This document shows positions 1-21,697 of a stretch of 33,806 nt of DNA, in pieces. Every line of letters begins with the position of its first letter. Position 1 is the stretch's first letter. The stretch lies in assembly GCA_903908785.1 (NCBI GenBank), contig CAIVTL010000278.1, forward strand, positions 1-33,806, in the 5' to 3' direction. Made by a program: the position numbers and the translations under genes. The notes beneath the pieces were generated by a model. It had not been told where the DNA came from, did no database searches, and saw only the letters and a list, made by a program, of their open reading frames with translations. The stretch is from a candidate division WOR-3 bacterium (GTDB lineage: Bacteria > Hydrothermota > Tepidihabitantia > Tepidihabitantales > Tepidihabitantaceae).

Positions 1-1451
1 ATCTTGGACAGCCGGCAGAAATCCTGGAGAGCTTGCCGATTCCCGAGCGAGTCGTGATTCCCATGCTGCAGGGGTTTGGCGTCGTGTTCAAACCGCTGGT
101 TGAGCCGGGCGCGGTGGTTGCTGCCGGCCAGATTATCGGCCGCGACGACGACTCGCTGTCATCGCCGATTCACGCGACCGTGAACGGCAAGGTCGCGGCA
201 ATCGCGCCGATTGCGCATGCCGGCCGCAGCGTTCCCGCCGTCGTCATCGACGGCGACGGAACCGATTCCTGGGCACGGCTCGAAGGGCACTCGGCCCAGC
301 ACCAGAAACTGACAGCGGAACAGATCGAGGAACTGCTCTACCGGTCCGGTGTCTCCGGCCTGGGCAGCGAAGGGATTCCGACCCGGTTTCACACTTCGGT
401 CATCACCCCGGCCGACGTCCGCCACCTCATCGTACACCTGACCGGCTCGGACGTGTTCAACCCGTCGCCGGGCGCGCTGCTTTCCGGCTCGAATCCTGAC
501 CGTTTCATGGCCGGGATTGAGATTCTACAGCGGGTGATGCCCAAAGCCCTTGTCCACGTCGTGCTGAGCCGCCAAGAGTCGGCATTGCTTGCGACCATCG
601 GCAGGCTGGCGGCTGGAAAGCAGGCGGTGAAACTCTATGCGGTGGACGCGAAGTACCCGCAAGCCGCGCCCGAGATGCTGGTCACGACGATACTGGGCGA
701 GGAGTTTCCGTATGGTCTCGCTGCGGCGAACATCGGCGTGGTAATCATCGACGCCCAGGCGGTGCTGCATGCCTACGAGGCCGTGGTCGAGGGGAAGCCG
801 GTCATTGAACGTATGGTCGCGCTGTCCGGGCCGGGCTTCAAGCAGCCCGGGCACGTGCGGGTGCGGGTCGGCACGCCCATCGAGCGCATCGTGGCCGGAC
901 GATTGAAGGATTCGGGCGAAGTCCGGCAGCGGGTCGTGCTGGACAGCCCGCTTTCCGGTCTCCGGGTTGACGATCTCTCATTGCCCATCGACCGCACCGT
1001 GAGCCAGTTGGTCGCCATTCCCGACGACGACCGCCGGCTGCCGTTCGCGTTCGCGCGGCCGGGCCTGCACACCGATTCGTTCTCCCGCAGTTTTGTCCCG
1101 GCGTGGCTGCCGACCGGCAAGGTGGCCGGCACGAACCGTCACGGCGAGGAACGCCCCTGTATCCAGTGCGGCTGGTGTGCCCGGGTCTGCCCCGTGCGCA
1201 TCATCCCGCACCTCATCTACCGGCAGGCGCGGGTCGAAACAAGCGAATTGCTTGTCCGCTACGGCGTCTTCAACTGCATCGACTGCAACCTGTGCAGCTT
1301 CGTCTGCACGTCCAAGATACCCCTGGCCCGGCACATCCGGGAGGCGAAAGAGAAGCTGCTTGCGGTCGGCTGCGACAATTCCTCCTGTGTTGTGTCGAAG
1401 TTCAACCTGAAGGGGGTTGAGGAGTACAGGGGAGTTAAGAGCGTCAGATGA
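1..1451 (+). CDS. RnfC/NqrA-like subunit of an Nqr/Rnf-type oxidoreductase (5'-partial; codon phase begins at nt 3)
   Basis: No in-frame stop lies between nt 3 and TTG-33, so the ORF runs off the window. VVIPMLQGFG...GQIIG...PIHATVNGKV matches the RnfC/NqrA N-terminal barrel-sandwich. GLGSEGIPT looks like a degenerate RnfC GLGGAGFPT loop. Two ferredoxin-type motifs are present: CIQCGWCARVCP and CIDCNLCSFVCT. It is the first gene of an nqrABCDEF-ordered operon. Confidence 0.75.
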   Translation, partial: LGQPAEILESLPIPERVVIPMLQGFGVVFKPLVEPGAVVAAGQIIGRDDDSLSSPIHATVNGKVAAIAPIAHAGRSVPAVVIDGDGTDSWARLEGHSAQHQKLTAEQIEELLYRSGVSGLGSEGIPTRFHTSVITPADVRHLIVHLTGSDVFNPSPGALLSGSNPDRFMAGIEILQRVMPKALVHVVLSRQESALLATIGRLAAGKQAVKLYAVDAKYPQAAPEMLVTTILGEEFPYGLAAANIGVVIIDAQAVLHAYEAVVEGKPVIERMVALSGPGFKQPGHVRVRVGTPIERIVAGRLKDSGEVRQRVVLDSPLSGLRVDDLSLPIDRTVSQLVAIPDDDRRLPFAFARPGLHTDSFSRSFVPAWLPTGKVAGTNRHGEERPCIQCGWCARVCPVRIIPHLIYRQARVETSELLVRYGVFNCIDCNLCSFVCTSKIPLARHIREAKEKLLAVGCDNSSCVVSKFNLKGVEEYRGVKSVR

Positions 1452-1452
1452 G

Positions 1453-1494
1453 GACGAAGTCAGAAGGCAGAGGTCAGAAGCTAGAAGTCAGAAG
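1453..1494. repeat. STR block, 6 x 7 bp (GACGAAG TCAGAAG GCAGAGG TCAGAAG CTAGAAG TCAGAAG)
   Basis: Phase-perfect heptamers read directly. Intergenic, between the first nqr gene and nqrB. Confidence 0.9.
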
Positions 1495-1518
1495 TGTGGG
1501 AGCGGAGGCCGGAGCGGC

Positions 1519-2616
1519 ATGAGCAAACTGCTGCACGCGTTGGTCGCGCGGTTGAACGGGCTGACGGCGAAGGGGCCGCTGAAGCGGCTGCAACCGGTGA
1601 CCGAGGCGCTCGACGAAGCGCTGCTCGGCACGGACAAGACCGCGAAGGCCGCGCCCTTCCTCTCCGACGGCATGGACGTGAAGCGAATGATGTCGCTCGT
1701 CATCATCGGGCTTGTCCCGGCAACGCTTGCCGGCATCTACTTCTACGGCTGGCGCGTGGTCGCGATGATTGTTACTTCATACGCGGTCGGCGGCATGGTC
1801 GAAGTCGCCTTCGCGATGGCGCGCCGCAAGCCGATTCACGAGGGCTTCCTGGTGACCGGGCTGATTTTCCCGCTCATCCTGCCCCCTACGACCCCGCTCT
1901 GGATTGTCGCGGTAGGCGTGTTCTTCGGCGTGTTCTTCGGCAAGGAAGTCTTCGGCGGGACCGGCCGGAATATCTTCAACCCGGCGCTCGTGGGCCGGCT
2001 GTTCATCAGTCTCGCGTTCCCGAGCCACTTCGCGACGATGTGGGGCAAGATGCACTGGGGCGGGGCGGGCGGCTTCGTCCATTGGACCGTTGACGCCGTA
2101 ACCCAGGCCACGCCCTTGATTGACTTCAAGGGCGCGCACATGATATCAACCGACCCGCTGTCGCTGTTTATCGGCCACACGCCCGGCTGCGTCGGGGAGA
2201 CGTTCCGTATCGGTATCATCCTCGGAGGTCTGTTCATCATCGTGATGCGGGCCGGGGACTGGCGGGTGCCGGTCGCGTACCTGGGCAGCGTCGTGGTCAC
2301 GGCGCTCGCCCTGCACGGTATCGTGCCGGACCGGGTCGCGCCGGTCTGGTTTCAACTCCTGTCCGGCGGGCTCCTGTTCGGCGCTTTCTTCATGGCCAAC
2401 GACCCGGTTACATCGCCCTACACATTCACGGGCCGCTGGATTTACGGCATCGCGCTCGGGGTGCTGACCGTGCTGATACGGGCGATATCCGGCCTGCCTG
2501 AGGGCGTGATGTTTGCCATCCTGCTGATGAATGCCGTCGTGCCCCTCATCGACATGATGGTGGTGGGCGCGGCCTACAAGAAGGCGACGACCCGGGTTCG
2601 CCGCTGGGCGGCCTGA
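1519..2616 (+). CDS. nqrB: Nqr subunit B / RnfD-like polytopic membrane subunit
   Basis: Multi-TM protein with RnfD/NqrB-like conserved stretches (GKEVFGGTGRNIFNPALVGR, DAVTQATPL, FFMANDPVTSP). ATG-1519 is preceded by GGAGG at 1504-1508. The ORF-track start at 1417 overlaps the upstream gene and reads through a repeat block. Confidence 0.85.
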   Translation: MSKLLHALVARLNGLTAKGPLKRLQPVTEALDEALLGTDKTAKAAPFLSDGMDVKRMMSLVIIGLVPATLAGIYFYGWRVVAMIVTSYAVGGMVEVAFAMARRKPIHEGFLVTGLIFPLILPPTTPLWIVAVGVFFGVFFGKEVFGGTGRNIFNPALVGRLFISLAFPSHFATMWGKMHWGGAGGFVHWTVDAVTQATPLIDFKGAHMISTDPLSLFIGHTPGCVGETFRIGIILGGLFIIVMRAGDWRVPVAYLGSVVVTALALHGIVPDRVAPVWFQLLSGGLLFGAFFMANDPVTSPYTFTGRWIYGIALGVLTVLIRAISGLPEGVMFAILLMNAVVPLIDMMVVGAAYKKATTRVRRWAA

Positions 2617-3200
2617 TGGCGAAGATGAAACTTGGCCGCAAGCTGCTGGAAATGCTCTTCATCGTCGGGCTGGGACTGGTTTCGGTCGCCATGCTGCTGG
2701 CGGCACAGAGCTATGCCGCCCCGGCGGTCAGGCGCTTCCAAATGCTCCGCCTGCGGACCAGCATCCTTGGGGCCGCGGGTGTCGCGACGGCGCCGGCCGA
2801 GGTGAACGGCATCTTCGAGGCGCGCGTCACGGAGGCACGGGGCAACGGCGCGACCTATTACCGCGTTGACAGTCTCGTTGTGTACGAATTCAAGGGCCGG
2901 GGACTCTGGGGCCCGGTCGAGGGCGTCATCACGCTCGACTCGGGCCTGACCCGTATCAGGAGCGTGCGCGTCCTCGTGCAGGAGGAAACTCCTGGTCTCG
3001 GCGACCGCATCAAGGACCCCGCGTACCTCGTCACCTACCAGAACAAGACCGCGCTTGAACCGCTGGTGCTGGCAATGCGCCATCAAGCGGTCGAGGCCAA
3101 CGAGGTTGACGCCATTTCCGGCGCGACGCTCAGTTCCGAGGCCCTGCTCGTTATTGTCGGCGACGCGGTCGCACAGCTGCGGCAGGCGATGGGAAAGTGA
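2616..3200 (+). CDS. nqrC: Nqr subunit C / RnfG-like FMN-binding subunit
   Basis: N-terminal TM helix plus an FMN_bind domain. Flavinylation motif DAISGATLSS (SGAT codons at 3116-3127). The ATG overlaps the nqrB stop (TGATG). Confidence 0.8.
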   Translation: MAKMKLGRKLLEMLFIVGLGLVSVAMLLAAQSYAAPAVRRFQMLRLRTSILGAAGVATAPAEVNGIFEARVTEARGNGATYYRVDSLVVYEFKGRGLWGPVEGVITLDSGLTRIRSVRVLVQEETPGLGDRIKDPAYLVTYQNKTALEPLVLAMRHQAVEANEVDAISGATLSSEALLVIVGDAVAQLRQAMGK

Positions 3201-3207
3201 GCGGAAG

Positions 3208-3837
3208 GTGAACTTCCGGAAGCTAGCCTACACCCGGCCGTGGCGGGTTTTCATCACCGGCTTCTTCAAAGAGAACGCCGTCTGCTACCAGGTGCTCGGC
3301 CTCTGCTCGACGCTCGCGGTCTCCAACAAGATGGAGAACGCGGTGGCGATGGGCGCGAGTGTGGTATTCGTCATGCTGGTGTCGTCCGCCGTCATCTCCC
3401 TGCTGCGCCGGGTGATCCCGGTCCAGTACCGCATCATCACGTACATGATTGTTACTTCGACTTTCGTCATCATCATTGACCATTTCCTCAAGGCCAACTT
3501 CCCGACAATCAGCGGCCAACTCGGCCCATACGTCGGCCTGATTATCACCAACTGCATCGTTATGGGCCGGCAGGAGGCCTTCGCCATCAAGAACGGTGTC
3601 GGGCTTTCCATCCTCGACAGCCTGGGCGCGGCCCTGAGCTACAGTTACGTACTGGTCGGCATCGCCGCGGTGCGCGAGTTCCTCGGGTTCGGCAGTCTGC
3701 TCGGCGTCAAAGTCACGCCGCCGCACTTCGAGAACTGGGTGGTAATATCCATGGCGCAGGGCGCGTGGTTTGTGATGGCGATTTTCGTCTGGGGCTTCCG
3801 GCGCATAGCGAAGCTGAAGCCCCTGGAACAGGAGTAG
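3208..3837 (+). CDS. nqrD: Nqr subunit D / RnfE-like membrane subunit
   Basis: FKENAVCYQVLGLCSTLAVS...ITNCIVMGR is typical of NqrD/RnfE. GTG-3208 is the first in-frame start after the nqrC stop. The ORF-track start at 3055 would overlap nqrC by 146 nt. Confidence 0.8.
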   Translation: MNFRKLAYTRPWRVFITGFFKENAVCYQVLGLCSTLAVSNKMENAVAMGASVVFVMLVSSAVISLLRRVIPVQYRIITYMIVTSTFVIIIDHFLKANFPTISGQLGPYVGLIITNCIVMGRQEAFAIKNGVGLSILDSLGAALSYSYVLVGIAAVREFLGFGSLLGVKVTPPHFENWVVISMAQGAWFVMAIFVWGFRRIAKLKPLEQE

Positions 3838-3840
3838 AAC

Positions 3841-4431
3841 ATGCACCTGAACCCGCTGGTCCTCCTGGTCGCGGCGATATTCACCCACAACATCGCCCTG
3901 ACCTACCTGCTCGGCATGTGCCCGATGATGGCCATGTCGCGCCGCATCAACACCTCGGTCGGCATGGGCCTCGCCGTCATGTTCGTCACCGCGGTCACCG
4001 CGCCCATCGACTGGGTCATCTACAACAAAGTTCTTGTCCCGACGCACTCCGAAGTCATGATGCTCCTTGTCTTCATCATCGTCATCGCCGCCGTGGTCCA
4101 GTTGCTCGAACTCCTGATGCGCCGGTTCCTGCCCGCGCTGCACGCCGGGTTCGGGCCATTCCTGCCGCTGGTTACCGTCAACACCACCATTTTCGCGGTT
4201 TCGATATTCTCGGTCATGCGCAACTACAACCTCTGGCAGAGCACGGCATTTGCGGTTGGCTCGGGCGCGGGCTGGGCCCTGGCAATCATCCTCATCGCTG
4301 GAGTCAGAAACCGGGTTCAGCTCGTCAGCGACGTGCCGGCGGACCTGCGCGGGGCCGGCATCACGATGATAATCGCCGGCATTCTTGCGCTCAGCTTCAT
4401 CGGTTTCTCGGGTATGGTGGCAGTACAATAG
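3841..4431 (+). CDS. nqrE: Nqr subunit E / RnfA-like membrane subunit
   Basis: 6-TM protein. IFTHNIALTYLLGMCP and LPLVTVNTTIF are NqrE/RnfA-type motifs. It starts 4 nt after the nqrD stop. Confidence 0.85.
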   Translation: MHLNPLVLLVAAIFTHNIALTYLLGMCPMMAMSRRINTSVGMGLAVMFVTAVTAPIDWVIYNKVLVPTHSEVMMLLVFIIVIAAVVQLLELLMRRFLPALHAGFGPFLPLVTVNTTIFAVSIFSVMRNYNLWQSTAFAVGSGAGWALAIILIAGVRNRVQLVSDVPADLRGAGITMIIAGILALSFIGFSGMVAVQ

Positions 4432-4466
4432 GATGAAGGACAAAGGCGGAAGGACCAAGACGGAAG
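4432..4466. repeat. STR block, 5 x 7 bp (GATGAAG GACAAAG GCGGAAG GACCAAG ACGGAAG)
   Basis: Starts 1 nt after the nqrE stop. Intergenic. Confidence 0.85.
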
Positions 4467-4476
4467 GGGCACGGCC

Positions 4477-5580
4477 GTGATAACCATGCTGGTGATGGCC
4501 GGGCTGCTCATCACCGTGGCGGTCGTGCTGCTCGTGGCCGAGCGCATCCTCATCAGCTATGGCGAGTGCTCAGTTACCATCAACGACAAGCAGTGCATCC
4601 AGGTCGAAGGTGGCGAGACCCTGCTCTCCGTCCTCAACCGTCACAAACTCTTCGTTCCTTCAGCTTGCGGGGGCAAGGCGACCTGCGGGTTCTGCAAGGT
4701 CGTGGTAAGGGGCGGGGCCGGCACAATCCTGCCGACGGAAGAAATATTCATCAACAAGGCCGAGCGCGAACTGGGCATGCGCCTCGCCTGCCAGGTCAGG
4801 GTCGAGCGGCCGGTCAGGGTCCAGATGCCGGAGACCCTGCTGGGCGCACGCGAGTATACCTCCGAAGTGCTGGCGGTGGAGCAGCTCACTTATGATACGC
4901 GGCTCATCCGGTTCGGGCTCAAAGGCGGCGATGAAGTCCACTTCAAACCCGGCCAGTACGTCCAACTCCTCGTGCCCGGTACGGACCAATATCGCGCCTA
5001 TTCAGTCGCCAGTCCTCCAAGCCGCGCTCTCGCCTCTCGCCTCTCGTCTCTCGTCTCTCCCGAGTTTGAGCTCATCATCCGTCGCGTGCCGGGCGGCCTC
5101 TGCACCGGCTGGATTCACAGCGCGGTCGAGAAGGGCGACGAAGTGCGATTCACCGGGCCGTTCGGCGACTTCTATCTCCACGAAGACTCGAACCGGGAAA
5201 TCGTGGCCATCGGCGGTGGCTCGGGAATGGCCCCGATGCGGTCCATCATCCTGCACCTGGCCGAGCAGGGCATGCCGCGCAAGGTGACCCTCTTCTTCGG
5301 CGCGCGCCGCCGGCGCGACCTCTTCTACGTCGCGGAGTTTCAGGCGCTCGAACGACTGTATCCGAACTTCCGCTATCTCCCGGCGCTTTCCGAGCCCCGA
5401 CCGGAAGACCACTGGACCGGCGAAACCGGGTTCATTACGCAGACCGTGCAGAAGCACATCGTGCCGGGCAGGGAAAGGGAGGCCGTGCTCTGTGGCCCGC
5501 CGCCGATGATTGACGCGGCCATGCGCGTGCTGCCGCGCATCGGCGTGCAACCCGAGCATACCTACTTCGACAAGTTCTGA
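4477..5580 (+). CDS. nqrF: Nqr subunit F (TM anchor + 2Fe-2S ferredoxin + FAD/NAD(P) reductase)
   Basis: N-terminal TM helix. 2Fe-2S motif SACGGKATCGFCK...ACQ. FAD motif YRAYSVAS. NAD motif GGGSGMAPMRS. GGAAGGGG lies 7 nt upstream of GTG-4477. A heptamer repeat (5028-5062) is inserted in frame just after the RxYS motif. Confidence 0.88.
   Translation: MITMLVMAGLLITVAVVLLVAERILISYGECSVTINDKQCIQVEGGETLLSVLNRHKLFVPSACGGKATCGFCKVVVRGGAGTILPTEEIFINKAERELGMRLACQVRVERPVRVQMPETLLGAREYTSEVLAVEQLTYDTRLIRFGLKGGDEVHFKPGQYVQLLVPGTDQYRAYSVASPPSRALASRLSSLVSPEFELIIRRVPGGLCTGWIHSAVEKGDEVRFTGPFGDFYLHEDSNREIVAIGGGSGMAPMRSIILHLAEQGMPRKVTLFFGARRRRDLFYVAEFQALERLYPNFRYLPALSEPRPEDHWTGETGFITQTVQKHIVPGREREAVLCGPPPMIDAAMRVLPRIGVQPEHTYFDKF
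5028..5062. repeat. STR block, 5 x 7 bp (CTCTCGC x2, CTCTCGT x2, CTCTCCC), inside nqrF
   Basis: Encodes roughly the LASRLSSLVS part of ...SRALASRLSSLVSPE..., between the RxYS motif and the next beta-strand. Confidence 0.9.
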
Positions 5581-5583
5581 GGC

Positions 5584-5617
5584 GGGAAATGGGACAAAAG
5601 GGACCAAAGAGACACAA
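5584..5617. repeat. STR block, 7-9 bp units (GGGAAAT GGGACAAAA GGGACCAAA GAGACACAA)
   Basis: Covers the start codon and the first 10 codons of menA. Confidence 0.75.
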
Positions 5618-6512
5618 GGCAGGCATCTGGCTGCGCGAGTTGCGCGCGCCGTTCTTCGTCGGCACGGTGATGCCCGCGGTCTTCGGCGCGGCCTACGCCC
5701 ACTACGCCGGCGCCGCGTTCAACTGGCCGCTGTTCGGCCTGACGATACTCGGCACCGTTCTCACCAACGCCGGCCTGAACATGACCAATGACTACTTCGA
5801 CCACAAGAGCGGCGATGACGACCTGACCCCGGCCACGCCGGTGTCCGGCGGGAGTAAGGTTATCCAGGAGGGGCTACTGAAGCCGCGGCAGGTACTGGCC
5901 GCCGGTATTGCCTGTCTCGCACTTGCCGCAGTAGTCGGCCTGTATCTCAATGCCGTGACCGGCGGGCGCGTGCTGCTGATTGTTGGCATCGTCGGGATGG
6001 TAATAGCGTGGTTCTATACCGCGCCGCCGCTGAAGTTCGGGCACCGCAGCGGGGTGGGCGAGGTGGTCTGCGTGCTCGGGTGCGGGCCGGTAATTGCGTT
6101 CGGGGCGTTCTTTGTGCAGGCGCGGGTATTTTCGTGGGCGGCGGTGTTTGCCAGTCTTCCCATCGGACTGTTGATGGGTCTGGTGCTCTTCATCAACGAG
6201 TTCCACGACGTACACGCGGACGGGGCCGTGGGCAAGCGGACTTTGGTGGTCGCGCTCGGCACCGGGGCCGCGTCTTTCGTGCTCGCTTTCACGCTGGCGG
6301 CCACCTATCTGCTGACAGTCGTGCTCGTGGTTCTGAATATCCTTGCGCCTGCGTCGTTGTTCGCACTGGTGACCCTGCCGCTGGCTGTATTCGCGGTAAT
6401 CCGGGCCCGGCGCTATCACGCCGAGTCGCCGAAACTGCTGCCGGCGAACTTCGCGGTCATCGGCACGCACCTGCTCTTCGGCGCGATTCTCACCCTGGTG
6501 GCGGCATTATGA
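5589..6512 (+). CDS. menA: UbiA-family prenyltransferase, MenA-like (1,4-dihydroxy-2-naphthoate polyprenyltransferase)
   Basis: 8-9 TM helices. NDYFDHKSGDD and NEFHDVHADGAVGKRTL are Asp-rich UbiA/MenA motifs. The first 10 codons (MGQKGPKRHK) lie inside a repeat block. Confidence 0.75.
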   Translation: MGQKGPKRHKAGIWLRELRAPFFVGTVMPAVFGAAYAHYAGAAFNWPLFGLTILGTVLTNAGLNMTNDYFDHKSGDDDLTPATPVSGGSKVIQEGLLKPRQVLAAGIACLALAAVVGLYLNAVTGGRVLLIVGIVGMVIAWFYTAPPLKFGHRSGVGEVVCVLGCGPVIAFGAFFVQARVFSWAAVFASLPIGLLMGLVLFINEFHDVHADGAVGKRTLVVALGTGAASFVLAFTLAATYLLTVVLVVLNILAPASLFALVTLPLAVFAVIRARRYHAESPKLLPANFAVIGTHLLFGAILTLVAAL

Positions 6513-7387
6513 ACGGTGTGGGTCGGATACTTGCGCCCATCGAGGCCGCTCTGGCCGCGGTCGAAGAGACCATGGCCCGCCGCAATAATCCCGGCCTCGA
6601 AGTGCTTGCCGGGGGGAAGCGACTGCGCCCCGCGCTCCTCTTGTTCGCCGCCGGGGCGGCCGGGCACGGAGAACACGGACGGACACGGACGAACACAGAC
6701 GGACACGGGCAGGCAATGGCCGACGCGGTTTTGCTGGCGGCCGCGGTAGAGATGGTCCACACGGCATCGCTGATTCACGACGACGTGATTGACGAGTCGA
6801 GCGAGCGACGGAAAGGCGCGGCTCTCCACAAGGTCATCGGGACCCGGGCAGCCATCATCCTGGCCGACTATCTGTTCGTGCAGGGCCTGGCATTACTGGA
6901 ATCGGTCAAACGAACCAGCTTGGTTCCCGAGGTCGTCCGCGAGGTCTTGGTGATGTGTGAAGGGCAATGGCTAGAGATGAAAGTCGCGGCGGGCGCAACC
7001 TGTACCGAGCGACAGTACCATGAGGTAATCGAGAAGAAGACCGCGGCCCTGTTCGCGTTCTGCTGCCGGGCCGGCGGGCGGTTGCGGGGAGCCGATGCCG
7101 CGGAGTTGGCCGCGCTGGATGAGTTCGGCCGGAACTTCGGCTTCGTGTTCCAGTTGCTCGACGATGCGGAGGACATGGGGGAGGGAGAGAGGAAGAAAGG
7201 GAGTAAGAGAGTGAGGGCGGAACAGAACAGTATTGAGCGGGCGATTGCCCAATGCGGCGGACGGCGATACCTGCGCCGAAGCGCGCTGGAATTCGCCCGG
7301 CGGGCTCGGACCGCGGCGCGGAAGATCGCCAACCCGGTGGCCCGGCGAGGCATGATCCGGCTACTGGAATCTGTAGCGGAGGGGTAA
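6509..7387 (+). CDS. Polyprenyl diphosphate synthase (trans-IPPS family)
   Basis: KRLRPALLLF, LIHDDVIDES (first DDxxD) and FQLLDDAEDM (second DDxxD). ATG-6509 overlaps the menA stop (ATGA). The ORF-track N-terminus (6008-6508) is an out-of-frame read through menA. Two repeat blocks are inserted in frame. Confidence 0.75.
   Translation: MNGVGRILAPIEAALAAVEETMARRNNPGLEVLAGGKRLRPALLLFAAGAAGHGEHGRTRTNTDGHGQAMADAVLLAAAVEMVHTASLIHDDVIDESSERRKGAALHKVIGTRAAIILADYLFVQGLALLESVKRTSLVPEVVREVLVMCEGQWLEMKVAAGATCTERQYHEVIEKKTAALFAFCCRAGGRLRGADAAELAALDEFGRNFGFVFQLLDDAEDMGEGERKKGSKRVRAEQNSIERAIAQCGGRRYLRRSALEFARRARTAARKIANPVARRGMIRLLESVAEG
6662..6710. repeat. STR block, about 5 x 10 bp (GAACACGGAC GGACACGGAC GAACACAGAC GGACACGGGC), inside the polyprenyl synthase gene
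   Basis: Encodes GHGEHGRTRTNTDGHG, just upstream of the first DDxxD helix. Confidence 0.85.
7177..7230. repeat. Purine-rich degenerate repeat (GGGAGAG/GGAAGAA/AAGAGAG...), inside the polyprenyl synthase gene
   Basis: Encodes GEGERKKGSKRVRAEQN, directly after the second DDxxD motif. The periodicity is weaker than in the other blocks. Confidence 0.5.
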
Positions 7388-7442
7388 GTGAGCGTTGCGA
7401 ACACCGAGGGCGTGCGCCGCGACGCTGTCTTCTCGTTGCCGG

Positions 7443-7471
7443 TTGCCACCAAGTCCAAAGCCGTCTAGACT
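7443..7471 (+). promoter_or_regulatory. Sigma70-like promoter (TTGCCA-17-TAGACT), 11 nt upstream of TTG-7483
   Basis: Read directly from the sequence. It implies a 5'UTR of only about 4-5 nt. Confidence 0.35.
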
Positions 7472-7482
7472 GACAATCTGAA

Positions 7483-7866
7483 TTGAACCGAAACCTCTGC
7501 CGAGTCACGGTCCTTGACCTGCTGCTCATCGCGGGGCTGCTCGGCCTGCCCGGCTGGGCACTGATTGTATCCTGGCGCGCCGCCCGCGAGCAGCCCGTCG
7601 CCTACATCTACGAGAACAACCGGTTGCTCGGCGCCTATCAACTCGACCGCGACCAGCTTATCGCTATCGGGGACAAGGCCCGGCCGGACATGAAGATAGA
7701 AATCAAGGGCGGCGCAATCCGCGTTGCCGAATCGGACTGTCCCAAGGGCGTATGCAAGCAGGCCGGTTGGGTGCGCACGCCCGGACGGTCAATCGTCTGC
7801 GTGCCGAACAAGGTGCTGATTGAACTGCGGGGCGAGCGCAAGGGATATGATGCGGAAAGCTACTAG
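7483..7866 (+). CDS. NusG domain II-containing protein (DUF1312 family)
   Basis: N-terminal TM helix, then the family-typical ...IKGGAIRVAESDCPKGVCKQAGWV...GRSIVCVPNKVLIEL. TTG-7483 is the only in-frame start codon available. Confidence 0.65.
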   Translation: MNRNLCRVTVLDLLLIAGLLGLPGWALIVSWRAAREQPVAYIYENNRLLGAYQLDRDQLIAIGDKARPDMKIEIKGGAIRVAESDCPKGVCKQAGWVRTPGRSIVCVPNKVLIELRGERKGYDAESY

Positions 7867-9142
7867 CGGGAAGTCCGAAGCTCGAAGTCCGAATGACGAA
7901 TGCAGCCCCACGGACAGCATTGTGAGGCTATCGATTCTGGTCGCCGGCGCCTCGGTGCTGCAGGTTGCCGAGTCGCTGCTCCCGCATCCGCTGCCCGGAG
8001 TCAGGCTCGGTCTTGCCAACATCATCACGGTCATCGCGATGGTCTACATCGGCCCGGGCAGCGCGATACAGCTTGCGGTGCTGCGCACGCTCATCAGTTC
8101 AATGGTGCTGGGAACGTTCCTGACGCCGACCTTTGTGCTTTCTTTCTCGGGTGGCGTGGTCAGCGCGGTCGTCATGGTTCTCTTGTATCGTTTCTCGCAC
8201 GGGGGCGGGCCATTCCGTTTCAGCCTCATCGGCATCAGCGTGGGCGGGGCGGTGAGCCACATCCTGACCCAGGTCGCGCTGGTCTATCTGCTCTTCATCC
8301 GCAGTAGCGGCGTGTTGCTGCTCTGGCCGTGGCTTGCGCTGTCGGCGGTAGTCACGGGAGTAGTCACCGGCATGATTGCGGTTCAGGCCGTACGGCGACT
8401 GGACACCGGCGAGGCGAGTGGGGTGGCGCTGACCCCGGCGTCGGACCGGTCGGACGTGTCGGACCGGTCGGACAAGGATTCACTCGTCCGGCGCATTCGG
8501 CCGGAAGTGAAGATTACCACGGTTGTGGTCCTTGGGCTCGCGGTGGTTGTCTTCGCGAACTACGCGCTTTATGCCGCCGTCCTGGTGCTGCTCGCGGCCG
8601 TCACGGTGCTGGCCCGGGTTCGGTTCAGCCGTCTGCTGGCCGGGCTGAAGCGAATCTGGGCGCTGCTCGTTGCCGCACTGGTGATGCCGGTCATCTTCTC
8701 GCCCTGGGGAAGAGTGCTCATCGCAATCGGGCCGGTGCGAGCGACCGACCAGGGCCTTCACGCAGGCGCCAGCTTCGCTGCGCGCATCCTCTTGTTGTTC
8801 TTCGCGACCGCCCTTTTGGCCCAGACGACCGCGCCGGAGGAAATCGCGGGCGGGCTGGAGAAGCTGCTCGGCCCGCTGCGGGTCTTCCGGGTAAGGCCGG
8901 GCCGGCTGGCGCGGTCGCTGAGCCTTTCCTGGTACTACTTCCCCCAGTTCTGGCAGAGCGTTCGGCGCATGGTTGGCGAGAGTCGCGGCCGCAAGGGCTG
9001 GCTGGACCGGACTATCCATCTTCCGGGCGATGTCGTTGCCGACCTGTACTTCGCGGCCGACCGACTTGCCGACTCCGGGTCGGATGGACGCGACCGGCAG
9101 CCGGCGCCTGGCGGGTTTCCGCCACCGCCTGACCAGGAGTGA
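7847..9142 (+). CDS. Fusion protein: Gx transporter family (Hpre_diP_synt_I-like) N-terminal half + EcfT/CbiQ-like ECF T-component C-terminal half
   Basis: N-terminal half: LPHPLPGVRLGLANIITVIAM...GISVGGAVSHILTQV. C-terminal half: IRPEVKITTVV..., LLFFATALLAQTTAPEEIAGGLEKLL, CbiQ/EcfT-like. The halves are joined by the peptide SDRSDVSDRSD, encoded by a 9-bp tandem repeat. The start is uncertain: ATG-7847 or GTG-7922, which lies after a repeat block. Confidence 0.65.
   Translation: MMRKATSGKSEARSPNDECSPTDSIVRLSILVAGASVLQVAESLLPHPLPGVRLGLANIITVIAMVYIGPGSAIQLAVLRTLISSMVLGTFLTPTFVLSFSGGVVSAVVMVLLYRFSHGGGPFRFSLIGISVGGAVSHILTQVALVYLLFIRSSGVLLLWPWLALSAVVTGVVTGMIAVQAVRRLDTGEASGVALTPASDRSDVSDRSDKDSLVRRIRPEVKITTVVVLGLAVVVFANYALYAAVLVLLAAVTVLARVRFSRLLAGLKRIWALLVAALVMPVIFSPWGRVLIAIGPVRATDQGLHAGASFAARILLLFFATALLAQTTAPEEIAGGLEKLLGPLRVFRVRPGRLARSLSLSWYYFPQFWQSVRRMVGESRGRKGWLDRTIHLPGDVVADLYFAADRLADSGSDGRDRQPAPGGFPPPPDQE
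7870..7904. repeat. STR block, 5 x 7 bp (GAAGTCC GAAGCTC GAAGTCC GAATGAC GAATGCA)
   Basis: Lies between the NusG-II gene stop and the conserved part of the Gx-transporter gene. Confidence 0.85.
8438..8473. repeat. STR block, 4 x 9 bp (GCGTCGGAC CGGTCGGAC GTGTCGGAC CGGTCGGAC)
   Basis: Encodes ASDRSDVSDRSD, the linker between the Gx-transporter and EcfT halves. The same unit family occurs at 27262. Confidence 0.9.
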
Positions 9143-9373
9143 CGCCCGCGCCCGACAGCGGAAGCCCCGGATATGCGGTCGGGGCCCATGGCATCAGGCA
9201 GAGCGCCCAGAACCGGTTCCAAACGAGGCGGCGCGCCCGGCTGGCATGAAATGTGATACCTTGCGTAGAGATGGTACTGCGCCTTCAGAGGTCGGTTGCT
9301 GACCGTTCGGACGGGTCGGTCTGGCATGATACCAGCATACGAGGATATGGACGCTTACAAACGAGGAGGTAGA

Positions 9374-10549
9374 ATGACCAAGCACAGAGTGCTGCTGACA
9401 GCAGTACTGGTCGTGGCCCTTGCGGCCGGTGGAGCGGTAGGCGCGCAGCTGAATTTCGGCGGCGACCTGAAGCTGCACCTGTTCGATATGTCCACAGGCT
9501 CGAGCACGATTATGGGCTGGGATTCGCTCGGTAACCCCGTGCCGGTCAAATACGACACGACCGACCGTTGGGACATGGGGTTTGAGCGAGCGTACCTGTA
9601 CTTCGTGGTCCAGATTACCGACCAGGCATCGGTGGACATCGAGCCGGAGTTCGTAGCGCGGAGCGGCGCAACCCCGCAACTGGGTATGCGGATTGGCACC
9701 CAGCGCGCGTCAAACGAGTCCGGCTTGGGCGTCGCGTTCAACGCGGCGAAGCTGACCCTGGCGGTCCCGTGGAACCTGCAGGTCTCGGGCGGAATCTTGC
9801 GGCCGCTTTTCACCGAGGACTACGGCGACATGAAGGCGTTTCAGGAGACGAACCGGTACGACAAGACCGGCGCCAACTACTGGTTGCAGGCGTGGCACGA
9901 CATGGGGATCGAGGTCTACAAACCGTTCGAACTGAAACTGGGCGAGGAGTACGTCTCGATTCCGACGTATCTCTACCTGCTGAACGGCGCGCCGAACTAC
10001 ATCGATATCCCGGCATCCGACAACAACAGCAACAAGATGGTGATGTTGCACGTCGCGCCGGAGTTCTGGAAGATACGGGTGATGGGTTCGTACGGGTTCG
10101 GAAAGTGGGACGATGAGGGCAAGTACAACGTGATGCGCTATGCCGCCGGGCTGAGCGCCGCGTTCGGGCCCGTGTGGCTGCGGGCGGAGTACATGGGCGG
10201 TCGGTGGGACAACGAGATGTGGCAGCAGTCCGGGGAGCCGCTGGTCATCGACACCTTTGCCGCGAAGCCGTTCGGCTACTACGCCAAGCTCGGGGTGAAC
10301 ATCGTGCCTGACCGGCTCCGTTTCATCCTCGACTACGACTACGCGGAACACAACTTCAACGGGTTCCTGTCCATCGGGAACCCGGCGGTGAAGCAGCAAT
10401 ACACAACCGTGTCCGGGACACTGGGGTGGACCGTGTTTACCGGGTCGCAGGTGATGCTCGGCGTCGAGAAGGCGATGTGGAAGACGAGCGACGGGAACAC
10501 CAAGCTCGACTTCCTGCGGCCGACCCTGGGCTGGCGCACGGTCTTCTAA
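9374..10549 (+). CDS. Outer-membrane beta-barrel (porin-like) protein
   Basis: AGGAGG lies 5 nt upstream of ATG-9374. Signal peptide MTKHRVLLTAVLVVALAAGGAVGA. Alternating amphipathic beta-strand pattern rich in Y/G/W. C-terminus ...LGWRTVF has the terminal Phe typical of OMPs. Confidence 0.6.
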   Translation: MTKHRVLLTAVLVVALAAGGAVGAQLNFGGDLKLHLFDMSTGSSTIMGWDSLGNPVPVKYDTTDRWDMGFERAYLYFVVQITDQASVDIEPEFVARSGATPQLGMRIGTQRASNESGLGVAFNAAKLTLAVPWNLQVSGGILRPLFTEDYGDMKAFQETNRYDKTGANYWLQAWHDMGIEVYKPFELKLGEEYVSIPTYLYLLNGAPNYIDIPASDNNSNKMVMLHVAPEFWKIRVMGSYGFGKWDDEGKYNVMRYAAGLSAAFGPVWLRAEYMGGRWDNEMWQQSGEPLVIDTFAAKPFGYYAKLGVNIVPDRLRFILDYDYAEHNFNGFLSIGNPAVKQQYTTVSGTLGWTVFTGSQVMLGVEKAMWKTSDGNTKLDFLRPTLGWRTVF

Positions 10550-10561
10550 GAGGATTCCGTC

Positions 10562-11650
10562 GTGATGAGAGCCCCAGTCAGACTGCCGGCTGCGCCTCGC
10601 CGGTGGTCAATTGCTCGGGGGCTCCCCGACGGATTGTCTCCGCTGCGGCTGCTCGCATTCGCCTCGGCAGTCGTTTTGCTGGCCGCGGGGTGCCGCCATT
10701 CGGGCGCAGCGGTGCTGCGCAAGCAGACCCGGCTGATGATGGACACCTACGTGACAATCCAGGCCACGGGCCCGGCGCAGACGGCGGACAAGGCAATTGA
10801 GGCGGCGTTCGGACGACTGGAGGAGATCTCCCACAAGTTCAACTTCCTCGACTCGACCAGCCCGGTCCACGCGTTCAACGTCAACAATGCGCCCATCACC
10901 GACCCGGAACTGGTCAAGGTAGTGCAGGCCGCGGTGGCGGTGAGCGCGGCCTCGGGCGGTGCGTTCGACATCACGGTGCGGCCGCTGGTCGAGCTCTGGG
11001 GCTTCTACGGCGACCACCCGGCGGTGCCGTCGCAGCGGGCGATTGACTCGTGTCTCAGGATGGTCGGCTATAAGAACCTGGTGGTCGAGCCGGGCCGCGT
11101 GACGAAGCTCCGGCCGGACGTCACTATTGACCTCGGCGGCATCGCCAAGGGCTATGCCCTCGACGAAGCGGCGCGGGTGCTGCGGGCGGCGGGCATCGAT
11201 TCCGCGCTCATCGACCTCGGCGGGGACGTGTTCGCCATCGGCAGGAAGGGCAACCAGAACTGGAAGGTCGGCATCCGCAACCCGCGGAAGGATGGCGTCA
11301 TCGGGGTGGCCGCGGTGTCGAACCTGGCGGTGGTAACCTCGGGTGACTACGAACGCTTCTTCTTCGGCCCGGACAGCGTCCGCTACTGCCATATCATTGA
11401 CCCGGCAACGGGCTGGCCGCCGCGCGGCCTGATAAGCACGACCGTGGTGATGCGCGACCCGCTGACGGCGCAGGGCTGGTCCAAGGTGCTGTTCATCCGC
11501 GGCACCGACGCGCTGCCGCTCATCGAGAAGACCGGCGGCATCGAGGCGATTCTGATTACCGACAGCATGAGGGCAATCTGTACGCCGGGCCTGGTCAGCG
11601 CGATGGATACCACGCGGCTGAACGGAGTGACGAATTCCGCAGGCCGGTAG
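10562..11650 (+). CDS. apbE: FAD:protein FMN transferase (ApbE/Ftp), probable lipoprotein
   Basis: MMDTYVTIQA, DITVRPLVELWGF, IDLGGIAKGYALD, DLGGDVFAIG, VVTSGDYERFF and HIIDPATGWP are classic ApbE motifs. LLAAGC is a lipobox-like signal. Confidence 0.88.
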   Translation: MMRAPVRLPAAPRRWSIARGLPDGLSPLRLLAFASAVVLLAAGCRHSGAAVLRKQTRLMMDTYVTIQATGPAQTADKAIEAAFGRLEEISHKFNFLDSTSPVHAFNVNNAPITDPELVKVVQAAVAVSAASGGAFDITVRPLVELWGFYGDHPAVPSQRAIDSCLRMVGYKNLVVEPGRVTKLRPDVTIDLGGIAKGYALDEAARVLRAAGIDSALIDLGGDVFAIGRKGNQNWKVGIRNPRKDGVIGVAAVSNLAVVTSGDYERFFFGPDSVRYCHIIDPATGWPPRGLISTTVVMRDPLTAQGWSKVLFIRGTDALPLIEKTGGIEAILITDSMRAICTPGLVSAMDTTRLNGVTNSAGR

Positions 11651-11686
11651 ATAAACGGGTGTGTTCGAAATGAAAGGAGCTTTGGA

Positions 11687-12274
11687 ATGAAGAGACTTAC
11701 GTGGCTGCTGGTGGCATTCCTGCTTATCGCGCTGGTGCGAACGGCCGGCGCGGTGGTCCTGTTGAACCACGAAGCGGCGCTGAAGGCGATGTTTCCCGAT
11801 GCCGATAAGATAGTGACCGAGGAGGTGAGCTTGACGCCGGACCAGGTTACCGCGGTCAAGAGCCACCTCGGCGATAAGTGGACGCTCTACCAGGCCGGCG
11901 GACAGTCTGAGGAAGAGAAGGAAGCTGACACGGCGGTGTTCTACTTCGGCACCAAGGCGGGCGAGAAGACCGGCGTAGCCCTGATTGAGGTTCAGCCCGG
12001 CAAGTGGGGCCCGGTGAAGTTCATCGTGGCAATGGACCTCGCGGGCAAAGTCAAGGACCTGGCGGTCATGTCCTACGTTGAGCAGCGGGGCCGCCCGATT
12101 TCGACCAAGCGGTTCCTCGGCCAGTTCGTCGGGAAGACCGGCAAGAGCCAGGTTACCGTCGGCAAGGACGTCGACGCCATTTCCGGCGCAACCATCTCCT
12201 CACGCGCGACGGCCTTCGCGATCAAGAAGGTAATCGCCCTGTACGACGCGGTCTACCTCGAGCCCGAGAAGTAA
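11687..12274 (+). CDS. Secreted FMN-binding domain protein (NqrC/RnfG/PplA-like flavinylation substrate)
   Basis: GGAG RBS 8 nt upstream of the ATG and a signal peptide. FMN_bind-type C-terminus with DAISGATISSRA (SGAT codons at 12182-12193). It lies directly downstream of apbE. Confidence 0.75.
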   Translation: MKRLTWLLVAFLLIALVRTAGAVVLLNHEAALKAMFPDADKIVTEEVSLTPDQVTAVKSHLGDKWTLYQAGGQSEEEKEADTAVFYFGTKAGEKTGVALIEVQPGKWGPVKFIVAMDLAGKVKDLAVMSYVEQRGRPISTKRFLGQFVGKTGKSQVTVGKDVDAISGATISSRATAFAIKKVIALYDAVYLEPEK

Positions 12275-12293
12275 CAGCGGGAAAGGAGCGATA

Positions 12294-12785
12294 ATGAACG
12301 GATTGTCTCTGCCGACACTGCCGAAGTACGCCAAGGTCACAATCACCTTCTTCCTGCTGCTCATCGGCCTGACGTATCTTGTGGGAGTTCTCAACATCTA
12401 CCAGAAGACGAAGTTCACGGTCCAGGGCGCAATCGAAAACGAGCGGGGCTCGGAAGAGAAGATGATTTACCCCAAGGAGTTCGGGGACATGGTCAGCGTC
12501 ACCCATTTCCACCTCGGCGGCTGGGCGATGATGTTCATGTGGGTGCTGCTGTTCTTCCTGTTCTCCACTTATGGCCCCAAACTCAAGGGCGTGCTCGGGA
12601 CACTGCCTTTCCTGCTGGCACCGCTTGACGCGGGCAGCATGTGGCTTACCCGCTATGCGGCGCCCGGTTTTGCCTACCTCCTGATGGCCGTGGGCTTTCT
12701 GATGGCCGCGATATTCGGGCTGGTTCTCGTGCTCGACCTCATCAACTTTTGGTGGGGCAGGAAACCGGTGACGCAGTCGGCATGA
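12294..12785 (+). CDS. Hypothetical 4-TM membrane protein
   Basis: AAAGGAG RBS. Four predicted TM helices. It has a THFH His pair. No family was recognised. Confidence 0.5.
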   Translation: MNGLSLPTLPKYAKVTITFFLLLIGLTYLVGVLNIYQKTKFTVQGAIENERGSEEKMIYPKEFGDMVSVTHFHLGGWAMMFMWVLLFFLFSTYGPKLKGVLGTLPFLLAPLDAGSMWLTRYAAPGFAYLLMAVGFLMAAIFGLVLVLDLINFWWGRKPVTQSA

Positions 12786-13129
12786 CCGCTAACCCGCGGG
12801 CGTGCCGTCCCCGGCCCGCCCGCAAACGTCGCTCGCCACCGGCCCCGCGCAAGCTCAATTGCTGGGAGTACAAGAAATGCGGACGGGGACCGGGCAATGA
12901 GCCGAAGTGTCCCGCGGCGACCGACGTTCAGGCCGACGGTATCAACGGCGGCATCAGGGGCGGCAGGGTCTGCTGGGCGATTGCCGGCACCATGTGCGGC
13001 GGCAGGCAGCAGGGTACTTACGCTGTCAATATCGAGACCTGCCTGCGGTGCGACTTCTGCCAGATGGTGCTCAGAGAGGAACAGGCCGAGACCTGCGAGG
13101 ACTTCGTTCCGCCCCGCCCGGGCCGCTAG
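12782..13129 (+). CDS. Two-CW domain protein (Cys-rich, stand-alone)
   Basis: LNCWEYKKCGRGPG...KCPA...GGRVCWAIAGTMCGG...TCLRCDFC matches the two Cys-Trp signature of the two-CW domain as I recall it. The ATG overlaps the upstream stop (ATGA). The ORF-track start at 12641 is an overlap artefact. Confidence 0.6.
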   Translation: MTANPRACRPRPARKRRSPPAPRKLNCWEYKKCGRGPGNEPKCPAATDVQADGINGGIRGGRVCWAIAGTMCGGRQQGTYAVNIETCLRCDFCQMVLREEQAETCEDFVPPRPGR

Positions 13130-13165
13130 TCGGTTTCGACGCCGGCAGGTGTGCAAACCCGTTGC

Positions 13166-13193
13166 TTGACAGCAGCGGGTTTGTCTCTATCTT
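13166..13193 (+). promoter_or_regulatory. Sigma70-like promoter (TTGACA-16-TATCTT) upstream of the ECF sigma gene
   Basis: Consensus -35 box and a good -10 box in the 13130-13261 gap. Confidence 0.5.
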
Positions 13194-19812: not shown

Positions 19813-19824
19813 GGTTTCCTCCCC

Positions 19825-21546: not shown

Positions 21547-21623
21547 GGCGAGCAGGGCGAGCGTGAACGGAACCAGATACTTTATCGCGGCCTCCTTGGT
21601 GACCAGGGTATCATCTATGCAAG

Positions 21624-21652
21624 GTTCTAACTGAAACAGGGGAAGAAGTCAA
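21624..21652 (-). promoter_or_regulatory. Weak sigma70-like promoter on the minus strand (TTGACT-17-TAGAAC) for paralog 2/1
   Basis: Located in the divergent intergenic region 21547-21744. The -10 box lacks the final T. Confidence 0.25.
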
Positions 21653-21668
21653 GGGAGACAGCCGCCGC

Positions 21669-21697
21669 TTGACATCCGTGCCGGGCTGCCGCATTAT
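21669..21697 (+). promoter_or_regulatory. Sigma70-like promoter (TTGACA-17-CATTAT) for paralogs 3-5
   Basis: Consensus -35 box, about 47 nt upstream of ATG-21745. Confidence 0.45.

Follow-up and report, generated by a model that had tools for sequence, protein, structure and literature searches.

A candidate diderm counterpart of flavin-based extracellular electron transfer, with a motif-bearing outer-membrane porin, in an uncultured WOR-3 bacterium

Introduction

Can electron transfer by covalently bound flavins, as in the flavin-based extracellular electron transfer (FLEET) system of Listeria, be carried over a second membrane? The question is raised by contig CAIVTL010000278.1 (assembly GCA_903908785.1) of a candidate division WOR-3 bacterium, a sequence of 33,806 bp and 64% G+C derived from a metagenome-assembled genome (MAG), which we analysed over its whole length and refer to as the window. 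Genes 75-93% identical to neighbouring genes in named MAGs support the WOR-3 affiliation. It carries a single co-oriented gene string (3-13129, all on the plus strand, with intergenic gaps of at most 231 bp) encoding a Rnf/Nqr-type ion pump, quinone-synthesis enzymes, homologues of EetA, EetB and ApbE, a secreted FMN_bind flavoprotein and an outer-membrane barrel with a motif of the type at which ApbE attaches flavin mononucleotide (FMN) taken from flavin adenine dinucleotide (FAD). We read this string, with moderate confidence, as a diderm flavin-based extracytosolic electron-transfer module, a counterpart of FLEET whose outer-membrane step would be a covalently flavinylated porin. The basis of this reading is gene content, homology to seven FLEET families, synteny across phyla, the porin fold, targeting signals and the motif.

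The Listeria monocytogenes FLEET locus described by Light and colleagues in 2018 reportedly comprises dmkA, dmkB, eetA, eetB, fmnA, fmnB, pplA and ndh2, and flavin-based extracellular electron transfer has, to our knowledge, been described as a Gram-positive trait. All routes over the bacterial outer membrane that we know of use multihaem cytochromes threaded through large porins.

Gene content of the co-oriented string

Domains were called with Pfam and NCBIfam hidden Markov models (HMMs), and gene starts were set by gene calls on identical public contigs. All domain calls of an earlier interpretation made from the letters alone (the sequence-only reading) were reproduced by these HMMs, and the string reads as follows:

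3-1451, plus strand: RnfC-like subunit A of the Rnf/Nqr-type pump (RnfC_N/Complex1_51K/NQRA_SLBB/Fer4)
1519-2616, plus strand: NqrB/RnfD, 365 aa (NQR2_RnfD_RnfE PF03116, 3.6e-100)
2616-3200, plus strand: NqrC/RnfG (FMN_bind PF04205, 2.5e-15; site DAISGAT)
3208-3837, plus strand: NqrD/RnfE membrane subunit (Rnf-Nqr PF02508, 8e-52; NF006777, 194.9 bits)
3841-4431, plus strand: NqrE/RnfA membrane subunit (Rnf-Nqr PF02508, 1e-45; TIGR01940, 187 bits)
4486-5580, plus strand: NqrF-type NADH-oxidising subunit (Fer2, a 2Fe-2S ferredoxin domain, with FAD_binding_6 and NAD_binding_1)
5589-6512, plus strand: MenA-like UbiA prenyltransferase, analogue of DmkA (PF01040, 2.5e-29)
6509-7387, plus strand: trans-polyprenyl diphosphate synthase, analogue of DmkB (polyprenyl_synt PF00348, 3.4e-45)
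7483-7866, plus strand: EetA homologue, a NusG_II domain with N-terminal membrane anchor (PF07009, 4.9e-22)
7850-9142, plus strand: EetB::EcfT fusion of Hpre_diP_synt_I and CbiQ (PF07456, 1.7e-34; PF02361, 1.5e-16)
9374-10549, plus strand: outer-membrane porin-fold barrel, 391 aa (AlphaFold2 model; no Pfam match)
10565-11650, plus strand: ApbE/FmnB FAD:protein FMN transferase (PF02424, 2e-79)
11687-12274, plus strand: secreted single-domain FMN_bind flavoprotein (PF04205, 2.1e-11; site DAISGATISS)
12294-12785, plus strand: Aq_1264_TM four-helix inner-membrane protein (PF27139)
12782-13129, plus strand: Cys-rich protein with two CW domains, final gene of the string (NF045718, 1.3e-23)
13153-13184, plus strand: hairpin with a 14-bp stem, likely end of the transcription unit

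The sequence-only reading had claimed that the Listeria inventory lies in this one co-oriented stretch, and seven of its eight gene families are present. The eighth, Ndh2, is replaced: domain scans detected no Pyr_redox_2-type NDH-2 in the window, where the Rnf/Nqr-type complex fills that place. The parallel is stronger than first claimed, because the parts are family-level homologues. PF07456 serves as the eetB marker in PMC9973259, and its Data Set S1 gives PF07009 (NusG_II) the label EetA. By these family matches, the NusG_II gene is the predicted EetA and the Gx/PF07456 part of the fusion the predicted EetB, with the EcfT part probably corresponding to FmnA. The four-helix protein, listed in the sequence-only reading as a 4-TM unknown, belongs to Aq_1264_TM; it is not an EetA/B equivalent, because those two places are taken by the NusG_II gene and the PF07456 part.

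EetB and FmnA, which resemble the S and T components of energy-coupling factor (ECF) transporters, respectively, export FAD for FmnB/ApbE, and the Listeria EetB was shown to act strictly as an exporter (PMC9973259). In the window the PF07456 match spans aa 40-187 of the open reading frame (ORF) 7820-9142. The EcfT half covers only positions 3-159 of the 216 of the CbiQ profile and scores 41.8 bits against TIGR02454, for which the cut-off is 111.8; it appears from these scores to be a divergent, C-terminally shortened T domain. The two halves are fused in all 16 of the barrel loci having the gene (described below), and the fused PF07456 and PF02361 architecture was found in 119 of 120 homologues among the matches listed. 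No EcfA-type ABC ATPase (ORFs with Walker A and LSGGQ) was detected in any fetched locus.

Conservation of the module across phyla

Twenty-one non-redundant barrel loci were collected through context look-ups, a scan of GTDB species representatives (14 loci) and phmmer searches of the window proteins against six-frame ORFs. They span at least eight named phyla (WOR-3, Elusimicrobiota/Endomicrobiales, Latescibacterota, Planctomycetota, Omnitrophota, Cloacimonadota, Armatimonadota and Spirochaetia), and individual loci are cited here by an L number, with coordinates where these matter. The partners of the barrel occur at the following frequencies:

ApbE beside the barrel: 19/21 loci
FMN_bind subfamily with the barrel: 19/21 loci, the other two contigs ending first
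EetA and the EetB::EcfT fusion with the barrel: 16/21 loci
Aq_1264_TM with the barrel: 14/21 loci
UbiA and/or polyprenyl synthase with the barrel: 9/21 loci
Rnf/Nqr-type pump with the barrel: 5/21 loci

The core therefore read from these counts is EetA, EetB::EcfT, barrel, ApbE and FMN_bind, usually with Aq_1264_TM, and its recurrence in 21 loci of at least eight phyla shows that the gene arrangement is not due to chance. The synteny on which the sequence-only reading depended is in this way conserved in relatives, near and distant, with the module genes co-oriented in all phyla. Gene order varies between phyla yet co-orientation is kept, and one genome has doubled part of the set, with two tandem Aq_1264_TM-barrel-FMN_bind triads around one EetA/EetB::EcfT pair, plus ApbE, on a 1.2-Mb contig (L007:9404-18006); we conclude that the module stands on its own and that selection acts on it as a whole. 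We also take it to be laterally mobile. Pump and quinone genes are frequent add-ons to it, and 16 of the 21 loci are pump-free, including L004, L005, L007, L009, L016, L017, L020, L022 and L026.

These counts bear on cofactor-maturation housekeeping, an explanation in which EetA/EetB::EcfT and ApbE serve NqrB and NqrC, with the FMN_bind protein as a spare paralogue of RnfG and the barrel as a bystander nutrient porin. ApbE is needed for maturation of NqrB and NqrC, and apbE often follows nqr (PMC12052999); the eetB gene adjoins apbE in 2,169 genomes and Rnf in 572 Clostridia (PMC9973259). The linkage of pump, ApbE and exporter is by itself already accounted for as cofactor supply, because eetB is known beside Rnf and apbE as an FAD exporter (PMC9973259). 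For that reason the sequence-only reading's argument that the ECF-like fusion goes beyond the ApbE requirement of Nqr fails as worded; what survives of it is that the module lacks a pump in 16 of 21 loci. Housekeeping would also fit the weak RnfG score of the FMN_bind protein and the generic porin fold of the barrel. We nevertheless regard it as improbable, because those 16 loci have no Rnf/Nqr genes to serve and because the barrel carries the motif: its tiny family lies nearly always beside ApbE and FMN_bind over eight phyla with an invariant flavinylation-type motif, and the occurrence of the FMN_bind subfamily tracks that of Aq_1264_TM instead of that of the pump.

In some lineages the module has hexahaem cytochromes or PsrABC-like quinol-linked reductases as neighbours, which we count in favour of the electron-transfer reading. 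Hexahaem c-type cytochromes are encoded nearby in Latescibacterota and one other lineage (L004:1788-2813, L009:16561-17631 and L013:5679-6704). An Elusimicrobia MAG (L002:12882-17453) has a PsrABC-like Fer4_11/NrfD/molybdopterin reductase with TatA/TatC directly 3' of FMN_bind. L007 holds an additional EetA/EetB::EcfT pair 3' of an MCP gene.

A porin-fold barrel with a flavinylation-type motif

The outer-membrane beta-barrel that the sequence-only reading placed between the ECF-like transporter and ApbE is borne out by an AlphaFold2 model of the 9374-10549 product (pLDDT, the predicted local distance difference test, 89.1; pTM, the predicted template modelling score, 0.85; 68-sequence alignment), which has about 18 strands. 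The protein has a signal peptide, and its C-terminal Phe is invariant across the family. Foldseek searches with the model returned general and solute-specific porins only (BpsOmp38 8wv0, OprP 2o4v, OprO 4rjw, DcaP 6eus, Omp32 and PorB; E 3e-11 to 1e-9, TM 0.5-0.58, 10-15% identity).

A generic porin fold (Foldseek TM of about 0.55) in a sequence that passes no Pfam model does not assign the barrel to any well-characterised porin family. No Pfam family matched the window barrel at E<=1, and the family profile had no match among PDB sequences even at E<=10; 5 of 21 barrel relatives match Porin_4 weakly, and a few family members touch Porin_4 or Porin_O_P. An index of 5.8 billion proteins held 81 homologues, all metagenome- or MAG-derived, and among 1.84 billion cluster representatives 79 members were recovered at E<=1e-30, followed by a sharp gap and then weak partial matches. 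The family is small and sharply bounded. Membership of DUF3570 was considered and rejected: PF12094 was absent at E<=1 from 21 family members and from the precomputed annotations of the 81 homologues.

Within this family, the window barrel carries SGATPQLG at aa 97-104, with SGATP at aa 97-101 (nt 9662-9676) and Thr100 as the candidate site. The x[GS]A[TS]P core is kept in all 102 close family sequences (TGATP 47, TSATP 17, SGATP 17, AGATP 9, TGASP 7, others 5) and in about 60 of 69 more distant representatives of 50% clusters. The ApbE recognition core is [S/T]GA[S/T], within a full motif DxxSGAT (PMC8238504, PMC12052999). The barrel motif matches this core and has the same form as the NqrB sites of linked pumps, TQATPL in the window and TSATPL in L018. 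A relaxed pattern, [ST][GSQ]A[ST], occurs in 6 of the 31 window proteins, namely the expected ApbE substrates NqrB, NqrC and FMN_bind, the barrel, and two others.

In the model, the motif opens a 22-residue loop (96-117) between strands 5 and 6, which would count as loop 3 in a porin. Both it and the following loop (143-175, with RPxFTEDYG at aa 143-151) are ordered in the model, and aa 97-104 and RPxFTEDYG rank among the most conserved stretches of the barrel, the reverse of the ordinary porin pattern. Strand parity puts loop 3 on the extracellular or constriction side, and the predicted placement of Thr100 draws on this parity together with pLDDT and conservation. When the window is compared with its WOR-3 relatives (barrels at L008:9992-11200 and L010:9902-11203), neighbouring genes are 63-93% identical but the barrel only 44-45%. 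Such low identity is expected for a surface-exposed protein and suggests diversifying selection or allele replacement, with the motif loop staying fixed.

A precedent for such a substrate is offered by DUF3570, which has about 420 aa and no FMN_bind domain, is a demonstrated ApbE substrate and proved insoluble on expression in E. coli (PMC8238504).

The flavinylation enzyme and the FMN_bind/Aq_1264_TM pair

The window ApbE begins with a hydrophobic segment and LLAAGC, and is probably a lipoprotein by this N-terminal sequence. That the FMN_bind protein is extracytoplasmic, as the sequence-only reading held, agrees with its N-terminal signal peptide (MKRLTWLLVAFLLIALVRTAGA) and with the invariant GAT of its DxxSGAT-type motif; the orthologue alignment preserves the signal sequence, QPGKWGP and D[IV]xA[IV]SGATISS, with WGP likewise invariant. 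With one FMN_bind domain, no lipobox Cys and a weak RnfG score, the protein is a putative functional analogue of PplA, RnfG-like in sequence.

Aq_1264_TM was modelled by AlphaFold2 as a compact four-helix protein (pLDDT 93). In a 34-sequence alignment F20, G52, W117 and an HxH pair (H71, H73) are invariant, and YRGxE and WL[IT]RY are conserved motifs; HxH lies at the start of helix 2, at the periplasmic end by the positive-inside rule. A fold search of the PDB gave no significant relative (best E 2.8). The gene adjoins FMN_bind in all three further loci examined, two of which lie outside the barrel module, and from this pairing we infer that Aq_1264_TM is the membrane partner of the FMN_bind protein. 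It could represent a further class of flavinylation-associated membrane electron-transfer protein.

The two outside loci combine the pair with iron genes. At L025:144-10890, Aq_1264_TM/FMN_bind pairs have Fur, an ABC importer and two P19 iron transporters as neighbours, and at L024:2770-7510 (Nitrospira) the pair stands beside TonB_C, ApbE and an iron ABC system; these contexts hint at a broader iron-linked flavoprotein system. The pairs in L024 and L025 are preceded by an unrelated secreted protein of 446-513 aa and a small lipoprotein-like protein. Putative barrels beside Aq_1264_TM/FMN_bind in Nitrospira-type loci were rejected as family members, lying outside the barrel family and lacking the motif.

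Such contexts lend weight to a serious alternative, in which a periplasmic reductase works with a solute-specific porin that is not flavinylated. The porin would pass chelated Fe(III), flavin shuttles or some other soluble acceptor, or take up flavin in auxotrophs, its motif would bind the solute, FMN_bind/Aq_1264_TM would reduce the substrate, and the role would be iron assimilation or flavin trafficking. The iron transport genes of L024 and L025, with their other, motif-less putative barrels, fit this explanation, as do the Rrf2 regulators in L007 and L026, the solute-specific porins OprP, OprO and DcaP among the nearest folds, and the repeated ties of flavinylation systems to iron uptake (PMC8238504). 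It is set against the exact coincidence of the barrel motif with the ApbE recognition core and the NqrB site form, and against ApbE being the immediate neighbour of the barrel in most loci. The quinone-synthesis pair and NADH pump in the operon suggest instead a FLEET-like disposal of electrons at high flux, and the Listeria EetB, as noted, is strictly an exporter (PMC9973259). On balance we consider this alternative unlikely, while giving it more credence than any other.

A Rnf/Nqr hybrid pump and dedicated quinone genes

What would feed electrons to such a module in the window is a pump of mixed type. The sequence-only reading called it Nqr, which holds for the six subunits, their A-F order and the NqrF subunit that provides the NADH input (TIGR01941 nqrF, 282.5 bits, slightly below the cut-off of 295), with no RnfB detected by Pfam or NCBIfam; it does not hold for subunit A, which is RnfC-type. 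This gene is truncated 5' by the contig end, its frame open from base 3, and despite the truncation it scores 1e-15 for RnfC_N and 245.1 bits for TIGR01945 rnfC (cut-off 245.95), compared with 128.2 for nqrA (cut-off 321). It has complete CxxCxxCxxxC 4Fe-4S motifs at two places, aa 376 and 415. From these matches, the complex is best described as a Rnf/Nqr hybrid combining an RnfC-type subunit A with NqrF, and it may represent an intermediate in pump evolution or else have a second redox site on the cytoplasmic side. The same hybrid type is present in L008:2-4502 and L018:10014-15511, and L019 has an NqrA without Cys motifs. Subunit A of the window pump has a degenerate nucleotide/FMN motif, GLGSEGIPT, as have the L008 and L018 pumps. 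The NqrB/RnfD flavinylation site reads DAVTQATPL.

The best NCBIfam match of the prenyltransferase is 1,4-dihydroxy-2-naphthoate polyprenyltransferase (157.8 bits, cut-off 277), and the protein falls under every equivalog cut-off. A prenyltransferase gene also belongs to the module in L002, L008, L009, L011 and L018, and a polyprenyl synthase gene in L002, L004, L008, L009, L011, L012 and L019.

Machines of the Rnf/Nqr type are reversible (PMC12174285), and the two 4Fe-4S motifs of subunit A, absent from canonical NqrA, hint at a cytoplasmic redox partner other than quinone. Both points would suit an inward flow, in which electrons from outside (given up by a cathode, Fe(II), reduced humics or a syntrophic partner) enter the quinone pool and the hybrid pump runs in reverse, making NADH or reducing its Fe-S subunit. 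Sequence sets no direction. The potentials of flavin and menaquinone, like the example of FLEET, speak for an outward flow, and most module loci have no pump; we think inward flow very improbable.

Proposed mechanism and points against it

In the outward-directed electron-transfer reading that we prefer, the NqrF-type input would oxidise NADH and the Rnf/Nqr pump would reduce a naphthoquinone made with the operon's own MenA-like prenyltransferase and polyprenyl synthase. EetA and EetB::EcfT would move FAD to the periplasm, where lipoprotein ApbE would put covalent FMN on NqrB, NqrC, the secreted FMN_bind protein and Thr100 of the barrel, acting in the last case on the unfolded protein in transit, since ApbE accepts short linear tags (PMC12052999). 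Quinol would be oxidised through Aq_1264_TM paired with the FMN_bind protein, and electrons would reach the FMN carried by the porin's ordered loop 3 and finally an acceptor outside the cell or at its surface, for which Fe(III), humics and soluble flavin are examples. Five parts of this scheme are inferences: that the fusion exports FAD, that the barrel is flavinylated, what Aq_1264_TM does, which way the electrons move, and that the end served is respiration or NAD+ regeneration rather than reductive iron uptake.

In the most novel form of the proposal, the barrel would belong to a class of ApbE substrates not seen before, with FMN covalently bound in a constriction-type loop, and would form a cytochrome-free porin-flavin conduit that, with EetA/EetB::EcfT, ApbE, FMN_bind and Aq_1264_TM as a new inner-membrane electron-transfer partner, would let phyla presumed to be purely fermentative respire extracellular acceptors. 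This we put forward tentatively, at somewhat less than an even chance.

Several points weigh against the preferred reading, beginning with the known linkage of EetB, ApbE and Rnf as cofactor supply in the 572 Clostridia genomes mentioned above. The barrel motif is without the upstream Asp of the canonical DxxSGAT, a residue whose D-to-A replacement has a minor effect (PMC12052999), and about 10% of the distant cluster representatives have a degenerate motif. Strand parity puts the opening of loop 3 on the extracellular side of the model, and a lone FMN may be insufficient to span the outer membrane. Transport by the fusion is only putative, because the loci hold no EcfA and the EcfT part is short. 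Aq_1264_TM has no evident haem or quinone site, because only two His are invariant and no structural relative was found in the PDB. In some lineages the P19, Fur and TonB neighbours suggest a role in acquiring iron, not in respiration. Finally, all hosts are uncultured MAGs, and the proposal draws on sequences and models.

Flanking genes and regulation

The transcription unit probably extends past Aq_1264_TM, through the two-CW gene, whose start overlaps the end of the Aq_1264_TM gene, to the hairpin at 13153-13184. The largest gap in the string is the 231 bp upstream of the barrel (9143-9373), which contains a good GGAGG ribosome-binding site as well as a sequence weakly resembling a promoter. 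An Rfam scan of the whole window, including this gap and one of 95 bp, returned nothing at the gathering threshold, so there is no FMN riboswitch in the window.

The two-CW gene is conserved in L001, L008 and L010, that is, in WOR-3-type relatives only, and stands again 3' of the module in L008 and L010. Downstream of the hairpin, up to 15505, the window encodes an extracytoplasmic function (ECF) sigma factor, a zf-HC2 anti-sigma factor and two Metal_resist/Spy-like periplasmic proteins, and L008 has this whole two-CW/sigma/anti-sigma/Spy-like set, which may be a dedicated envelope or metal-stress regulator. Two-component regulators of another kind, a 6TM_PilS-type histidine kinase with a response regulator, occur in or beside the module at L002:4071-5878, L008:6296-8027, L004:6375-8229 and L026:10605-12342, and Rrf2-family regulators at L007:15903-16899 and L026:4823-5218; the window module has neither the PilS-type pair nor an Rrf2 regulator.

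Besides the sigma/anti-sigma pair and the two Metal_resist/Spy-like genes, the remaining window genes include a methyltransferase, five PQQ_2 propellers, SMC and FtsY, and the genes outside 3-13129 appear unrelated to the string. The propellers are adjacent PQQ_2/BamB-like beta-propeller paralogues of 519-618 aa at 18010-26907, two on the minus and three on the plus strand, one of them with a PKD domain; similar PQQ_2 propeller genes lie 3' of the module in L008.

Implications

The kind of system at hand, ApbE-dependent extracytosolic flavin electron transfer, is known, as in FLEET. New with respect to the searchable literature are three features: the presence of a porin bearing the motif in a diderm module, the invariable fusion of EetB with EcfT, and the Aq_1264_TM partner; a literature search found no flavinylated porin or Gram-negative FLEET-like cluster described, within a coverage that leaves out most subscription journals.

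If the proposal is true, covalent-flavin electron transfer can be extended over a second membrane, and an outer-membrane porin, and possibly Aq_1264_TM, would join the proteins of flavinylation-linked electron transfer. The fusion would be a candidate answer to how FAD is delivered to periplasmic ApbE in some diderms, a route that a 2025 ApbE review calls 'still obscure'. Metabolic predictions would likewise be revised for uncultured anaerobic phyla modelled as obligate fermenters, among them WOR-3, Latescibacterota, Omnitrophota, Cloacimonadota, Elusimicrobiota and anaerobic Planctomycetota. A two-gene co-expression assay with ApbE is already established for DUF3570 and DUF2271.

Comparison with known systems

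The window pump shares with Na+-NQR (NqrABCDEF) the A-F order, the NqrF input and the absence of RnfB. NqrA is without any redox cofactors (2025 review, PMC12174285), whereas subunit A of the window is RnfC-type with two CxxCxxCxxxC motifs. The Rnf-eetB-apbE clusters of Clostridia (PMC9973259, PMC8238504) are alike in joining a Rnf/Nqr-type complex with EetA/EetB and ApbE, a linkage read there as FAD export for the flavinylation of RnfD and RnfG. They are without an outer-membrane component, an extra FMN_bind/Aq_1264_TM pair and quinone-synthesis genes, and the EetAB-ApbE set travels with the barrel in window-type loci, not with the pump.

DUF3570 (PF12094; PMC8238504) resembles the barrel in being a protein of similar size without an FMN_bind domain, encoded beside apbE and carrying a conserved [S/T]GA[S/T]. 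It differs in having two motifs and DsbD, thioredoxin-like and DUF4266 partners, compared with the single motif of the barrel and its EetAB, FMN_bind and Aq_1264_TM partners, and the two have no detectable sequence kinship. With general and solute-specific trimeric porins the barrel shares its fold, signal peptide, C-terminal Phe and long loop 3; it departs from general porins in its 10-15% identity, in passing no Pfam porin model and in its strict synteny with flavinylation genes.

The porin-cytochrome conduits MtrCAB of Shewanella and Pcc of Geobacter have outer-membrane barrels that sheathe multihaem cytochromes, MtrB having 26 strands. No window ORF has two or more CxxCH motifs, and a porin-cytochrome conduit was rejected as a reading of the window because no multihaem cytochrome is encoded there. 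A dedicated electron-moving barrel encoded with its periplasmic redox partner is what these systems have and what is proposed for the window, with the difference that the window barrel has about 18 strands in the model, its proposed cofactor being covalent FMN on the barrel itself.

The closest likeness is to Listeria FLEET, of whose eight genes the window has family-level homologues of EetA, EetB, FmnA, FmnB, PplA, DmkA and DmkB. The shared logic would run from NADH through a dedicated quinone to a covalently bound extracytosolic flavin. Where Listeria has Ndh2, the window has a Rnf/Nqr-type ion pump and most related loci have nothing; EetB and the ECF-T protein, separate in Listeria, are fused; and PplA, a surface lipoprotein with two flavinylated FMN_bind domains, has a window counterpart with one domain and no lipobox. 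The window host is a diderm, and its barrel with a flavinylation-type motif and its Aq_1264_TM protein are components unknown in FLEET.

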